62,953 nt of DNA from an uncultured Gammaproteobacteria bacterium. GTDB lineage: Bacteria; Patescibacteriota; Patescibacteriia; UBA9934. Made by a program: the position numbers and the translations under genes. The DNA lies in the NCBI GenBank assembly GCA_964462325.1, contig CAYWYQ010000001.1, positions 1 through 62,953 on the forward strand. Direction: 5' to 3'. The notes beneath the pieces are model-generated. The model worked only from the letters and a program-made list of their open reading frames with translations, had not been told where the DNA came from and made no database searches. This document shows, in pieces, positions 8,623 to 48,664 of this stretch (the first letter of the stretch is position 1; each line of letters starts with the position of its first letter).

Positions 8623-8907
8623 ATGGAAAAGCGACTAACAAAGTCACAGCTTATGTCAGCACTCGCTGAAACTTGGGGCCTTTCAAAGAAGGAAGCAGAA
8701 GAAGGGTACAATGCATTCGTTGAACTTCTTTACAAGGAGATCGGGCGTGCAGGAGAAGTAATGCTACCAGGACTTGGAAAGTTTGCGAAGAAGCACCGAA
8801 ATGCACGAATGGGTCGTAACCCAGCAACAGGTGAAGCAATTCAAATTCCAGCAAAAACAGTGATGAAGTTTTCTGTAAATAAAGCTGCAAAAGACGCACT
8901 TCTATAA
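8623..8907 (+). CDS. hup: HU-family DNA-binding protein
   Basis: 94 aa with LPGLGKF...RMGRNPATGEAIQIPAKTV, the typical HU/IHF beta-arm. Confidence 0.85.
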   Translation: MEKRLTKSQLMSALAETWGLSKKEAEEGYNAFVELLYKEIGRAGEVMLPGLGKFAKKHRNARMGRNPATGEAIQIPAKTVMKFSVNKAAKDALL

Positions 8908-8955
8908 GAATAGGGGTAAAAAAGAGAGTCATAACCTGTGGCTCTTTTTTATTTC

Positions 8956-9005
8956 TTCCGCTTGTTTATCTAGCTTTTAGCTGATTAGCGACTTAGCTAT
9001 TAGCA
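8956..9005 (+). repeat. LH 5' terminus followed by a TAGC-phased array
   Basis: TTCCGCTTGTTTATC, then TAGCTTTTAGCTGATTAGCGACTTAGCTATTAGCAC. Confidence 0.55.
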
Positions 9006-9093
9006 CGATGCTTATCGAAAGGTCAGTACCTCAAACGATCCACCGTCGCTTTACTTCCTAAAGCTATGGCTGGAGTATGCGAGGTCGGACCTT
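9003..9093. repeat. ATCGAAAGGTC / GAGGTCGGACCT hairpin-motif copies
   Basis: GATGCTTATCGAAAGGTCAGTACCTCAAACGATCC ... GCGAGGTCGGACCTT, related to 17012-17061 and 40909-40958. Confidence 0.5.
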
Positions 9094-9111
9094 AATAGGG
9101 TAGGTAGGGAG

Positions 9112-9191
9112 TAGTCGAATAGCAAGCTAGCTATTAGCATGTTAGCGATTTAGCCAATTAGCTACTAGCTTTTAGCGACTTAGCGTTTAGC
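9112..9191. repeat. TAGC-phased short tandem array (~10 units of 7-8 nt)
   Basis: TAGTCGAATAGCAAGCTAGCTATTAGCATGTTAGCGATTTAGCCAATTAGCTACTAGCTTTTAGCGACTTAGCGTTTAGC. Confidence 0.7.
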
Positions 9192-9195
9192 ATCT

Positions 9196-9232
9196 CGTCA
9201 TTTCGACCGAGCAAAGCGAGTGGAGAAATCTC
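9196..9232 (+). repeat. GTCATTTCGACCGAGC-type short repeat
   Basis: CGTCATTTCGACCGAGCAAAGCGAGTGGAGAAATCTC, an inverted counterpart of 1515-1551. Confidence 0.6.
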
Positions 9233-9254
9233 TTACAGTTTTGCGCCACAAGAA

Positions 9255-9281
9255 GATCCCAGATCAGGGTCTGGGATGACG
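9255..9281 (-). repeat. GTCATCCCAGA hairpin repeat
   Basis: GATCCCAGATCAGGGTCTGGGATGACG (stem CCCAGA/TCTGGG). Related copies lie at 11532-11556 and 41028-41053. Confidence 0.55.
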
Positions 9282-9354
9282 AAAGGTGAATCTCTTCAAG
9301 CACATGAATCTCCTTTTGTGGTTGAGGGTAGATAGTAGGGTGTAGTCGTAAGGT

Positions 9355-9371
9355 CCGAGGTTGAACCTCGG
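9355..9371. repeat. GAGGTT(C/G)AACCTC palindrome
   Basis: CCGAGGTTGAACCTCGG is a perfect 17-nt palindrome. Confidence 0.8.
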
Positions 9372-9425
9372 TTGATGAATACGCTCTTTCTTGATAGAAG
9401 CTTCAGAATTCGATAAGATCGAAAT

Positions 9426-16897: not shown

Positions 16898-16900
16898 GGC

Positions 16901-16984
16901 TTCCGCTTGAAAATTAACGAACTTTGCATTCACTCTTTCCTGTCCTCAACGTTCAAGTAAATTTCATTTAATTTTCTGTACGGG
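16901..16984 (+). repeat. LH element lacking the apex
   Basis: TTCCGCTTGAAAATTAACGAACTTTGCATTCA...CCTCAA|CGTTCAAGTAAATTTCATTTAATTTTCTGTACGG. The central ~40 nt are absent. Confidence 0.6.
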
Positions 16985-16985
16985 A

Positions 16986-17136
16986 TTTCGCTTGAAAATG
17001 GACGATCTGTCGACTCGTTGCGCATCGAAAGGTCTGTACCTCGATCGAGAGGTCGGACCTTGAAATGGACGTTTCAGTACAGCTGCGGGATATCTTCAAG
17101 CTTCATCGACATCTCATTCCATTTTCTGCGCGGACG
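16986..17136 (+). repeat. LH element carrying a nested 50-nt hairpin insertion
   Basis: TTTCGCTTGAAAATGGACG...[17012-17061]...TGAAATGGACGTTTCAGTAC...TCCATTTTCTGCGCGGACGG. Confidence 0.6.
17012..17061 (+). repeat. 50-nt hairpin element (GACTCGTTGC..ATCGAAAGGTC.GTACCTC.ATCGAGAGGTCGGACCTT)
   Basis: Near-identical to 40909-40958. It folds as AAGGTC.G-T-ACCTC / GAGGT-CGGACCTT. Confidence 0.65.
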
Positions 17137-17168
17137 GTTTTGTTGCTGAAAGACATGTCCGACTTTAT

Positions 17169-17211
17169 TCCGGAGGTTCAACCTCCAATATCCGAGGTTC
17201 AACCTCCAATA
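17169..17211. repeat. two tandem 21-22-nt units, each containing GAGGTTCAACCTC
   Basis: TCCGGAGGTTCAACCTCCAATA followed by TCCGAGGTTCAACCTCCAATA. Confidence 0.8.
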
Positions 17212-17244
17212 AAAGCCTTGTATGCCAAGAAATGCTATCACAGT

Positions 17245-17326
17245 GTGTTTATTGATGTTCAGTACAATAAACACATCCGAGGTTCAACCTCGAGGTTGAA
17301 CCTCGGTACGGCGAGGTTGAACCTCG
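17245..17326. repeat. AT-rich hairpin followed by three GAGGTT(C/G)AACCTC palindromes
   Basis: GTGTTTATTG-N10-CAATAAACAC, then CCGAGGTTCAACCTCGAGGTTGAACCTCGG (17277-17306) and GCGAGGTTGAACCTCG (17311-17326). Confidence 0.8.
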
Positions 17327-17350
17327 ATAAGAAGGGTATGTACTTCATAC

Positions 17351-17395
17351 GAGAGGTCGGACCTAAAATAGGAAAGTAGTAGATCGGACCTTTTC
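17351..17395. repeat. AGGTCGGACCT-type motifs
   Basis: GAGAGGTCGGACCTAAAATAGG...GATCGGACCTTTTCGATTGAAAGG. Confidence 0.5.
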
Positions 17396-17494
17396 GATTG
17401 AAAGGCCAGTATTCTAGAGGATGTAGGGCTTACCTCTATCGGCCTGATCCAAATCGTCTGTTATTTTTGCCACCGTGAACCACTCGTATTTTCA

Positions 17495-17503
17495 TGGTAT
17501 AAT
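17495..17503 (+). promoter_or_regulatory. extended -10 promoter element TGGTATAAT
   Basis: Perfect TGnTATAAT 10 nt upstream of ATG 17514, implying a leaderless or near-leaderless mRNA. Confidence 0.55.
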
Positions 17504-17513
17504 TGCCATAAGT

Positions 17514-27187: not shown

Positions 27188-27299
27188 AAATGGACGAACT
27201 TTGTCCTCAGTTCTTTGGTCCTCGCTCCATGTACGTATTAGTACACTCCGCTACGGTCCCCGAACTTCGTACAAATTTCATTCCATTTTCTGCGCGGAT
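27178..27299 (+). repeat. LH element, full copy
   Basis: TACCGCTTGAAAATGGACGAACTTTG ... apex GTACGTATTAGTAC (27231-27244) ... TCCATTTTCTGCGCGGAT. Confidence 0.7.
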
Positions 27300-27360
27300 A
27301 AGGTTCAAGGAAATAGCATCCAGTTTTCTGCGCGGGGCTACCGCTTGAAAATGGACGATC
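27300..27360 (+). repeat. LH half-elements (a 3' arm, then a 5' arm)
   Basis: AGGTTCAAGGAAATAGCATCCAGTTTTCTGCGCGG followed by CTACCGCTTGAAAATGGACGATC. Confidence 0.55.
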
Positions 27361-27383
27361 TTGAAAGGCCTATGCCTCCTTCC

Positions 27384-27398
27384 CGAGGTTCAACCTCG
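27384..27398. repeat. GAGGTTCAACCTC palindrome
   Basis: CGAGGTTCAACCTCG. Confidence 0.8.
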
Positions 27399-27456
27399 TA
27401 CGATGAGGAATCACCGATTAATTGTATTTACTGGTGATTTGTAAATAAACACATAT

Positions 27457-27529
27457 TCGAGGTTCAACCTCGAGGTTCAACCTCCGATTTAGCTGTGGAT
27501 AAGCAGGTCCGACCTTGAGGTCGGACCTT
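27457..27529. repeat. composite module: two GAGGTTCAACCTC copies, TGTGGATAA, then paired AGGTC(C/G)GACCT
   Basis: TCGAGGTTCAACCTCGAGGTTCAACCTCC-GATTTAGC-TGTGGATAA-GC-AGGTCCGACCTTGAGGTCGGACCTT. Same architecture as 41183-41231. Confidence 0.75.
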
Positions 27530-27586
27530 GGAGCAATAATGTATAAATTCGATTTCGAGAGGGGTCGGATTTTAACATGAAAAATT

Positions 27587-40780: not shown

Positions 40781-40782
40781 GC

Positions 40783-40909
40783 ACTCCGTTTATATACTGG
40801 CGTACTTTGCATTCACATCTTGCGCACTTCGCTACACTGTACGTATTAGTACACTTCCGCTCAGTGCTCGATGTTCAAGCAAATTACATCCAGTCTATTT
40901 CACGGACGG
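40783..40909 (+). repeat. LH element, full copy
   Basis: CCGTTTATATACTGGCG... apex GTACGTATTAGTAC (40839-40852) ... AATTACATCCAGTCTATTTCACGGACGG. Confidence 0.65.
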
Positions 40910-40958
40910 ACTCGTTGCCTATCGAAAGGTCCGTACCTCAATCGAGAGGTCGGACCTT
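40909..40958 (+). repeat. 50-nt hairpin element (second copy)
   Basis: GACTCGTTGCCTATCGAAAGGTCCGTACCTCAATCGAGAGGTCGGACCTT, compare 17012-17061. Confidence 0.65.
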
Positions 40959-40970
40959 AGACGTTTTGAA

Positions 40971-41022
40971 TAGCCGGTTAGCAAGCTAGCTATTAGCGAA
41001 TTAGCAACTTAGCTCTTAGCGC
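40971..41022. repeat. TAGC-phased short tandem array
   Basis: TAGCCGGTTAGCAAGCTAGCTATTAGCGAATTAGCAACTTAGCTCTTAGCGC. Confidence 0.65.
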
Positions 41023-41027
41023 ACACC

Positions 41028-41053
41028 GTCATTCCAGACTAAGATCTGGAATC
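41028..41053 (+). repeat. GTCATTCCAGA hairpin repeat
   Basis: GTCATTCCAGACTAAGATCTGGAATC (stem TCCAGA/TCTGGA). Confidence 0.55.
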
Positions 41054-41093
41054 TTACGTATCCCGTATTCTACTGAATCGAGGTTGTACTGAG

Positions 41094-41122
41094 CCGAGGT
41101 TGAACCTCGAGGTTCAACCTCG
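41094..41122. repeat. back-to-back GAGGTT(C/G)AACCTC palindromes
   Basis: CCGAGGTTGAACCTCGAGGTTCAACCTCG. Confidence 0.8.
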
Positions 41123-41182
41123 CACAGTGAGAAATGGAGGATATATTGTATTTATTGATGATTTATAAAAAAATACTTATAC

Positions 41183-41231
41183 GAGGTTCAACCTCCTGTG
41201 GATAAGTAGGTCGGACCTTGAGGTCGGACCT
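41183..41231. repeat. composite module: GAGGTTCAACCTC, TGTGGATAA, paired AGGTCGGACCT
   Basis: GAGGTTCAACCTCC-TGTGGATAA-GT-AGGTCGGACCTTGAGGTCGGACCT. Confidence 0.75.
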
Positions 41232-41263
41232 CGAGTCGATAATGAAATTGTATTGAATTAATT

Positions 41264-48468: not shown

Positions 48469-48474
48469 ATTAAT

Positions 48475-48520
48475 CCGAGGTTCAACCTCGATATATTATC
48501 CCCACCGAGGTTCAACCTCG
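48475..48520. repeat. two CCGAGGTTCAACCTCG palindromes 30 bp apart
   Basis: Copies at 48475-48490 and 48505-48520. Confidence 0.8.
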
Positions 48521-48564
48521 CATATCCAAAAAGTGATTAAATAATACTCTTTTGCATAGATTAC

Positions 48565-48624
48565 CCTCCCGAGGTTCAACCTCGAGGTTGAACCTCGGTG
48601 TTGGAGGTTGAACCTCGGGAGGGG
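48565..48624. repeat. 60-nt compound palindrome built from three GAGGTT(C/G)AACCTC units
   Basis: CCCTCCCGAGGTTCAACCTCGAGGTTGAACCTCGGTGTTGGAGGTTGAACCTCGGGAGGGG. The outer 20 nt are perfectly complementary. Confidence 0.8.
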
Positions 48625-48664
48625 ATTTTACCCTGTAATCAAACTCTGATAATATCTGAGACGT

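Follow-up and report, generated by a model that had tools for sequence, protein, structure and literature searches.

Background

To our knowledge, REP/RAYT systems have been studied almost solely in Proteobacteria, each species with its own REP. The closest described systems are the REP/BIME elements of E. coli together with TnpA-REP (RAYT, YafM) and the REPIN-RAYT systems of Pseudomonas (Nunvar 2010, PMC2817692; Bertels & Rainey 2011, PMC3116915; Messing 2012, PMC3479197, PDB 4ER8). Described REPs are species-specific (Quentin 2018, PMC6006769), and CPR lineages are not mentioned by Quentin et al.; likewise, a search of the literature accessible to searching found no paper relevantly pairing REP or RAYT with CPR. 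Intragenic REPs, including copies in uvrA, have been described by Di Nocera et al. 2013 (PMC3733652), thus in-frame behaviour is already known for REPs. In this study, we analysed a palindromic repeat in the window, by which we mean the whole stretch of 62,953 nt, which belongs to a 67,434-bp marine metagenome scaffold (ENA ERZ23498905), and compared it with the same core in other genomes.

Results

Distribution and arrangement of the palindrome in the window

An exact search of the window identified 18 copies of GAGGTTSAACCTC, i.e. GAGGTT(C/G)AACCTC, with C as the centre base in 11 and G in 7, and since 0 copies were found in 100 of 100 dinucleotide-preserving shuffles of the window, the chance expectation is 0. 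A mismatch search detected no one-mismatch version in the window, and the two-mismatch words of the core were just one sister-type palindrome and one chance word. This sister palindrome, AGGTC(C/G)GACCT, shows two symmetric substitutions relative to the main core, T6>C and A8>G, so that the dyad is retained, and its 8 copies in the window are all located inside core-bearing spacers. All 18 cores fall within six gene-free spacers of 196-616 nt (1230-1756, 8908-9425, 16898-17513, 27188-27586, 40781-41263 and 48469-48664), and 0/18 lie inside genes according to the public gene calls on assemblies of the same contig; two short ORFs of 104 aa and 78 aa, which a crude ORF map placed over the repeats, are built of the repeats themselves. 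Since non-coding DNA makes up only about 14% of the window and the coding 86% holds no core, the probability that six independent clusters would all fall in spacers by chance is P ~8e-6. The abundant palindrome of the original prediction was therefore recovered at its predicted positions, together with its confinement to spacers, its single, tandem and back-to-back arrangement, its flank and its co-occurring sister; its estimate of about 19 copies gave way to 18, the number obtained both by the exact search and from its own itemised list. An Rfam search of the window returned nothing but one tRNA, and a literature search with the 13-mer string returned chance matches in unrelated papers and nothing else.

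Window cores are usually flanked as CC-core-G and occur singly, as head-to-tail dimers, or as pairs 20-21 or 30 nt apart. Four head-to-tail dimers share CTCGAG with a period of 13, three of them combining a C-centred and a G-centred core in inverted fashion (17279/17292, 41096/41109 and 48571/48584). In the first cluster, c1, a single G-centred core (1684-1696) is located 61 nt upstream of the RNase HII gene, and 3 nt past it, at 1700-1708 on the + strand, stands TGTGGATAA, the complement of the DnaA-box consensus TTATCCACA. Cluster c2 comprises the sister palindrome AGGTCGGACCT (9082-9092) and a single G-centred core (9357-9369) 57 nt upstream of a LytR-family gene. Cluster c3 comprises two sister palindromes (17050-17060 and 17354-17364), and between them are two C-centred cores 21 nt apart (17173-17185 and 17194-17206, together 17173-17206) and a longer feature (17279-17325), in which an inverted C/G dimer overlapping in CTCGAG (17279-17304; 13-bp stem, -15.3 kcal/mol) is followed by a third, G-centred core (17313-17325). 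In c4, a C-centred core (27385-27397) forms the left end of a composite unit of about 160 nt (family D15), followed by a head-to-tail dimer of two C-centred cores (27459-27484) and, on the + strand at 27494-27528, by TGTGGATAA (27494-27502) and two tandem sisters, C-centred (27505-27515) and G-centred (27518-27528). Cluster c5, which lies between convergent genes, contains a sister palindrome (40947-40957), an inverted G/C dimer (41096-41121) and a + strand arrangement at 41183-41231 made of a C-centred core, TGTGGATAA (41197-41205) and two sisters (41208-41218 and 41221-41231). In c6, two C-centred cores 30 nt apart (48477-48519), the first of which starts 9 nt past the murJ stop, precede an inverted C/G dimer (48571-48596) and a G-centred core (48604-48616), so that the last feature (48571-48616) ends 49 nt upstream of alaS. 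For most clusters the distance from the cluster end to the next start codon is 49-103 nt, and in most cases 200-450 nt separate the upstream stop from the first copy. Clusters of 3-5 cores are intermixed with other repeat families, and the spacers are mosaics of many such families.

Several other elements were observed in these spacers. The 9-mer TGTGGATAA was located 3-15 nt from a REP core in all three of its + strand window copies and in at least four independent genomes (L049, L181, L208 and L220), with a density of 0.25/kb within 40 nt of a core versus 0.03/kb elsewhere. The composite unit of about 160 nt exists in two homologous versions (27384-27545 and 41096-41245), with 81% identity over 88 nt and a common order of core, about 58 AT-rich nt, core or cores, TGTGGATAAG and two sister palindromes; one of the two is located between convergent genes, and such units may represent a larger mobile unit made from REPs. 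TTAGC heptamer-like runs (TTAGCnA...) and other short repeats were found at 8900-9300, 40960-41030 and 1560-1640, and further short repeat families in the core-bearing spacers include CCGCTTGAAAATGGACGA, TTTCTGCGCGGACGG and ATCGAAAGGTCnGTACCTC.

Hairpin potential and pairing of the arms

Folded as single-stranded DNA, one core forms a 6-bp hairpin of -5.3 kcal/mol, while the inverted dimers form perfect 13-bp stems of -15 to -22 kcal/mol (z -7 to -9); a pair of sister copies likewise folds, at -11.2 kcal/mol, and over all tested copies the z-scores of the hairpin folds ranged from -3.7 to -9.2. Pooling of all other loci yielded 613 exact copies, 46 with one mismatch and 77 with two, and among the last group 36 of 77 are perfect palindromes, versus about 3% expected if the changes were independent. 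The palindrome-keeping forms are GAAGTT-S-AACTTC, AAGGTT-S-AACCTT and GAGGTC-S-GACCTC, and judging from these variants the conserved property appears to be the pairing of the arms. No GTAG or CGTC tag was found at the hairpin foot among 612 + 18 oriented copies, and the foot is flanked by TAT(G/C)...(C/G)ATA in other genomes and by CC...G in the window. An unsystematic look for target-site duplications revealed no consistent direct repeat at the flanks of the copies; in a single case, which bears on duplication of the MITE type, the insert in a UvrA gene is preceded by the half-site-like GGAGGTT.

Occurrence of the core in other genomes

When one genome per GTDB species was scanned for pairs of core copies within 30 nt, at least 113 stretches were identified, from at least 74 species-level assemblies by our own count, the chance estimate being about 0.02. 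Most of the core-pair genomes listed belong to CPR/Patescibacteria, including Saccharibacteria, many Parcubacteria groups and Levybacteria; the matches listed also include four Elusimicrobia MAGs, with contigs of 54-62% GC, and genomes labelled Thermodesulfovibrionia, Stahlbacteria, Bdellovibrionales, Planctomycetia and Chloroflexia (one contig of 1.47 Mb). One contig labelled Woesearchaeota archaeon (L112) encodes around its pair a peptide identical to that of a Jorgensenbacteria contig (L025), and is probably misbinned. Start-to-start spacing of the pairs elsewhere peaks at 18-20 nt, and most of them combine a C-centred with a G-centred core. Their flanks vary by lineage and often lengthen the dyad, the 13-nt top being the only common part, and the exact 28-nt dimer of the window had no match in GTDB genomes, which evidently do not include the genome of the window. 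In a Chloroflexia locus (L026) and in four Stahlbacteria loci (L014, L072, L099 and L104), the core is arranged in short tandem arrays with a period of 15-20, with the variants GAGGTTGTACCTT and GAGGTCGCACCTC and, in Stahlbacteria, a reading as EVQPQ repeats; these arrays may be a phenomenon different from the RAYT-linked doublets.

In these other genomes many core pairs are located within long ORFs and all three frames are used, giving EVEPP/EVQPP, GGSTS and RFNL/RLNL, which indicates that conservation acts at the DNA level. The host genes, as read from the sequence, encode Mfd, DNA polymerase I, UvrA, IleRS, ACP linkers of PUFA synthases and PMT-type glycosyltransferases. UvrA, the one intragenic host compared with solved structures, carries in L042 a clean insert of 14 codons, FRGSTSKTGREVEP, which contains both cores and aligns with the solved structures as '...TIGG--------------KNI...'. 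In one Elusimicrobia protein, ACP linkers that are otherwise identical carry 0, 1 or 2 core copies.

A RAYT-type enzyme linked to the palindrome

Where a locus contains additional copies, an ORF of about 190-260 aa (typically about 230 aa) with the motifs YHxYNRG, NH(Y/F)H, GALFQGRFK and Y(I/V)HxNP lies between cores, and in eight loci (L036, L043, L049, L050, L054, L081, L083 and L084) a core is also present inside this ORF. Among the 113 listed loci, tblastn detected this protein of about 230 aa in 8, plus one partial match; it was not seen in the fetched loci from Elusimicrobia, Thermodesulfovibrionia and Chloroflexia. The protein matches Pfam Y1_Tnp (PF01797) above the gathering score, and its sole NCBIfam match is NF047646, 'REP-associated tyrosine transposase', at 36-39 bits, below the cutoff of 80. 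In a profile built from eight proteins of core-bearing loci (A1), N86, H87, H89 and Y147 are invariant, so that the HUH and catalytic Tyr motifs are kept. Searching with this profile retrieved at least 7,999 proteins at E <= 1e-10; all those listed carry PF01797, and every source name given among the listed matches is that of a CPR lineage. An AlphaFold2 model of the RAYT-type protein (pLDDT 80, pTM 0.81) has as its top PDB match in Foldseek the E. coli TnpA-REP with its REP hairpin, 4ER8 (E 6e-5, probability 1.00, TM 0.63 on the target), which outranks the IS608 and ISDra2 transposases; the sequence match of the profile to 4ER8 is marginal (E 0.59).

A metagenome search for a core followed, 48-78 nt on, by back-translated (Y/F)HxYNRG recovered at least 120 stretches, versus a chance estimate of about 0.01, and these provided at least 102 complete ORFs with a median of 234 aa. 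A core lies in frame inside the gene in 82% of 102 complete ORFs and within 250 nt downstream in 67% of them, and at most of these loci few or no further copies were found in up to 14 kb. The layout is fixed in 87 non-redundant RAYT genes: the upstream copy is mostly G-centred (72/98), the start of the downstream copy falls between about -5 and +30 nt relative to the stop, and the internal copies (L132-L251) occupy two fixed positions, about 40-60 and about 140-160 residues past YHxYNRG, confined to two frames that avoid TGA. RAYT-type loci are single genes among housekeeping genes, without tnpB.

As most RAYT loci were picked via the palindrome, the apparent linkage is inflated; as a check against this selection, we took four homologues identified solely by protein similarity, which make up the unbiased sample. 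One of them (L255) has three exact cores; L253 has CGAGGC-GAA-GCCTCG upstream, inside and downstream of the gene; L252 has CAAGGT-TCG-ACCTTG upstream; and L254 has no clear flanking palindrome. These similarity-picked homologues suggest a family theme GAGGY...RCCTC, of which GAGGTTSAACCTC appears, from sequence comparison, to be a widely shared allele, and the sister palindrome of the window seems to fit it too.

The host population and its relatives

No RAYT gene was found by tblastn in the 63-kb window, and no Y1 gene was present in about 10 kb past its far end and 1.3 kb past its near end; the roughly 75 kb examined would correspond to about 7% of the genome, if the assumed size of near 1 Mb applies, and since this is probably a small fraction, the absence of a RAYT there says little. 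None of the at least 120 metagenome pattern loci carried the marker repeats of this genome. The population is represented in the assemblies ENA ERZ23498905 and JGI 3300008954. Contigs encoding identical proteins were identified in at least five other metagenome samples, and no insertion or excision polymorphism in the clusters was observed among them. The lone cluster difference is a 7-nt tandem duplication of a half-site (CAACCTC) in L129:3447-4014, relative to window positions 41109-41121, within the REP dimer at 41096-41121. This uniformity across samples provides no direct sign of ongoing mobility. Several short contigs of the population end in or near repeat-rich spacers, and metatranscriptomes of the same studies contained none of this organism's sequence words.

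The nearest named CobA homologues are from Uhrbacteria. In syntenic relatives (L256 and L257), whose CobA is 67-68% identical and whose downstream synteny is conserved, neither core nor sister was found in 9.5-12.6 kb of DNA, and the cobA spacer is 74 nt long in one of them versus 399 nt here. As these relatives are without copies, the clusters were gained in this lineage, recently on the species scale.

Discussion

Taken together, the linkage to RAYT genes in other genomes, the Y1_Tnp match and the fold nearest to 4ER8 argue for assigning the palindrome to a large RAYT clade as a REP/REPIN-type element. We consider it very probable that the 13 nt of GAGGTTSAACCTC constitute the conserved hairpin top of a REP-type repeat, that the inverted dimers are REPIN-like, and that the element belongs to a very large, mainly-CPR clade of RAYT (Y1/HUH) proteins. 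The finding proper to this window is a spacer-only, proliferated REP family. The original prediction had left four options unranked, among which the REP-like one is borne out by the core flanking RAYT-type Y1 genes in many genomes.

Judging from E. coli TnpA-REP and the enzymes of the IS200/IS605 family, this genome probably encodes such a RAYT as well, which would cut and copy this hairpin and might serve some host function. The element would fold into a hairpin when the DNA is single-stranded, e.g. at the replication fork; a single-copy RAYT coded elsewhere in the genome would then recognise the hairpin top, cut adjacent to it and copy it to new sites. Single-stranded CCGAGGTTCAACCTCGG would be its putative substrate, and the RAYT gene of this genome would itself be expected to be flanked by CCGAGGTTSAACCTCG. 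Only harmless insertions would persist, which in this genome would mean long spacers, gradually filled into BIME-like mosaics, whereas in other genomes permissive protein loops would also tolerate them, as the core is nearly free of stop codons. Selection for the hairpin, or else correction templated by it, would keep the arms complementary, which could explain why the window lacks one-mismatch copies and why there is a sister palindrome.

A farther-reaching version of this explanation, which we regard as rather unlikely, proposes that a domesticated RAYT clade, inherited vertically in CPR and some other phyla, would use the 13-nt top as its fixed recognition element and, beyond spreading the hairpins, keep them perfect by hairpin-directed cutting and copy-correction, including the two in-frame copies in its own gene. 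In genomes such as the present one the hairpins would then have been co-opted as spacer modules acting at the replication fork, some of them equipped with the DnaA-box-like 9-mer.

It is improbable that the hairpins are instead RNA elements, i.e. intrinsic terminators or stabilisers of the 3' ends of upstream mRNAs that became abundant by selection. One report (10.64898/2026.03.23.713779) describes E. coli REPs as 3'UTR regulators, Di Nocera 2013 (PMC3733652) makes the case for transcription of many REPs, and cluster c6, which begins so close behind the murJ stop, has a T-rich tail after its first copy (48476-48490). However, the terminator option of the original prediction fails on the other copies: of the 18, this one alone is followed by a T-rich tail as it would be transcribed, on the + strand; the remaining matches are on the opposite strand, and c5 has none. 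Moreover, most first copies are 200-450 nt away from the upstream stop, and an RNA element would leave both the identical core across phyla and the RAYT linkage unexplained. As a secondary, exapted function, however, an RNA role may exist.

A further explanation, which develops the protein operator of the original prediction, takes the palindrome as the operator bound by a dimeric protein, such as a global regulator or a nucleoid protein, and the clusters as regulatory regions for the genes downstream. Its 6-1-6 dyad symmetry, its exact conservation with no degenerate copies, the position of most clusters 49-103 nt before the next start codon and the DnaA-box-like 9-mer adjoining three copies would all be consistent with an operator. 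Nevertheless, we find this very improbable: one cluster is located between convergent genes, where a promoter is not needed, the sites are missing from the syntenic spacer of the related species (L256 and L257), and elsewhere the 13-mer is found in frame inside UvrA, PolA, IleRS and Mfd, in all three frames. The symmetric double variants also point to pairing of the arms rather than to base-specific contacts in duplex DNA, and the RAYT linkage already accounts for the conservation without an operator.

The least probable explanation is that the copies are relics of a lost RAYT system, or were spread by slippage or recombination between repeat islands with no transposase now active, because, while the lack of a RAYT in the examined 75 kb, the identity of the clusters across population samples with a slippage-type 7-nt duplication as their lone polymorphism, and the period-13 head-to-tail dimers that could come from local duplication agree with it, the absence of copies from relatives indicates recent gain on the species scale, and relics should have decayed whereas 18 exact copies and no one-mismatch copy are present.

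Several other candidates were rejected. DNA uptake sequences (DUS/USS), the last of the options originally suggested, are evenly dispersed, often intragenic, oriented and non-palindromic, whereas the copies here are palindromic, grouped in six clusters, of both orientations in centre base (11 C, 7 G) and absent from the 86% of coding DNA (0/18). The originally noted likeness of the half-sites to the Shine-Dalgarno and anti-Shine-Dalgarno sequences is true letter by letter; nothing in this analysis pointed to a role for it, and sequestration of such sites was rejected as no copy sits at a start codon. A tRNA T-arm (GGTTCAA) was discarded on inspection, since the loop falls 2 nt short and the G-centred form is a mere reverse complement. 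Integron attC sites, a tyrosine-recombinase core (13-6/8-13) and restriction sites (CTCGAG, TTSAA) were dropped given the RAYT linkage.

Returning to the REP/REPIN-type explanation, a REP/RAYT-type system is now seen in CPR, bacteria with tiny and supposedly streamlined genomes, and for its RAYT clade of at least 7,999 proteins we found no description in the searchable literature. One hairpin top across classes and phyla offers a testable handle on substrate recognition by Y1 enzymes, as one oligonucleotide should serve many of them. There are also practical consequences: the hairpins break metagenome assemblies, as several population contigs end in or near repeat-rich spacers, and they make spurious ORFs and elsewhere append short peptides to essential proteins, which is relevant to annotators and structure predictors.

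Among the known systems, HIP1 of cyanobacteria resembles the present repeat in being an exact short palindrome that is hugely over-represented, phylum-wide and also intragenic. HIP1 is 8 nt long and evenly spread through coding DNA, and we know of no transposase linked to it, whereas the copies described here are clustered, arranged in doublets and tied to a Y1 gene. The IS200/IS605 family (TnpA Y1; IS608 and ISDra2) shares the PF01797 superfamily and the recognition of single-strand hairpins, and supplied the second-rank fold matches; however, its members are multi-copy and autonomous, with imperfect subterminal hairpins and often tnpB, while the mobile unit here would be a hairpin of 13-40 nt. 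Intragenic REPs of the kind described by Di Nocera and the Rickettsia palindromic elements (RPE) are likewise palindromic repeats in frame within functional genes, notably those for replication and repair, and UvrA, PolA and Mfd carry the core in other genomes, with none intragenic in the window; RPEs, on the other hand, are about 100-150 bp long and limited to Rickettsia, and the intragenic REPs bear GTAG/CGTC tags.

The closest counterpart is the REP/REPIN-RAYT system, with which the present one has in common a short, hairpin-forming, mostly intergenic repeat of high copy number, inverted doublets and mosaic clusters, a Y1/HUH transposase-like gene flanked by the repeat (seen in other genomes) and a predicted protein fold nearest to 4ER8. 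It differs from classic REPs in that the palindrome is perfect, with a 13-nt top identical across classes and phyla, and from described REPs in the lack of a GTAG/CGTC tag; the protein, at about 230 aa, is longer than the 165-aa chain of 4ER8 and scores far below the NCBIfam RAYT cutoff, and the RAYT gene itself carries the repeat in frame at two set positions. The system departs from REP/REPIN-RAYT in its tag and its score against the curated cutoff, and acts like it in its repeat, its doublets, its flanking gene, its fold and its catalytic motifs.
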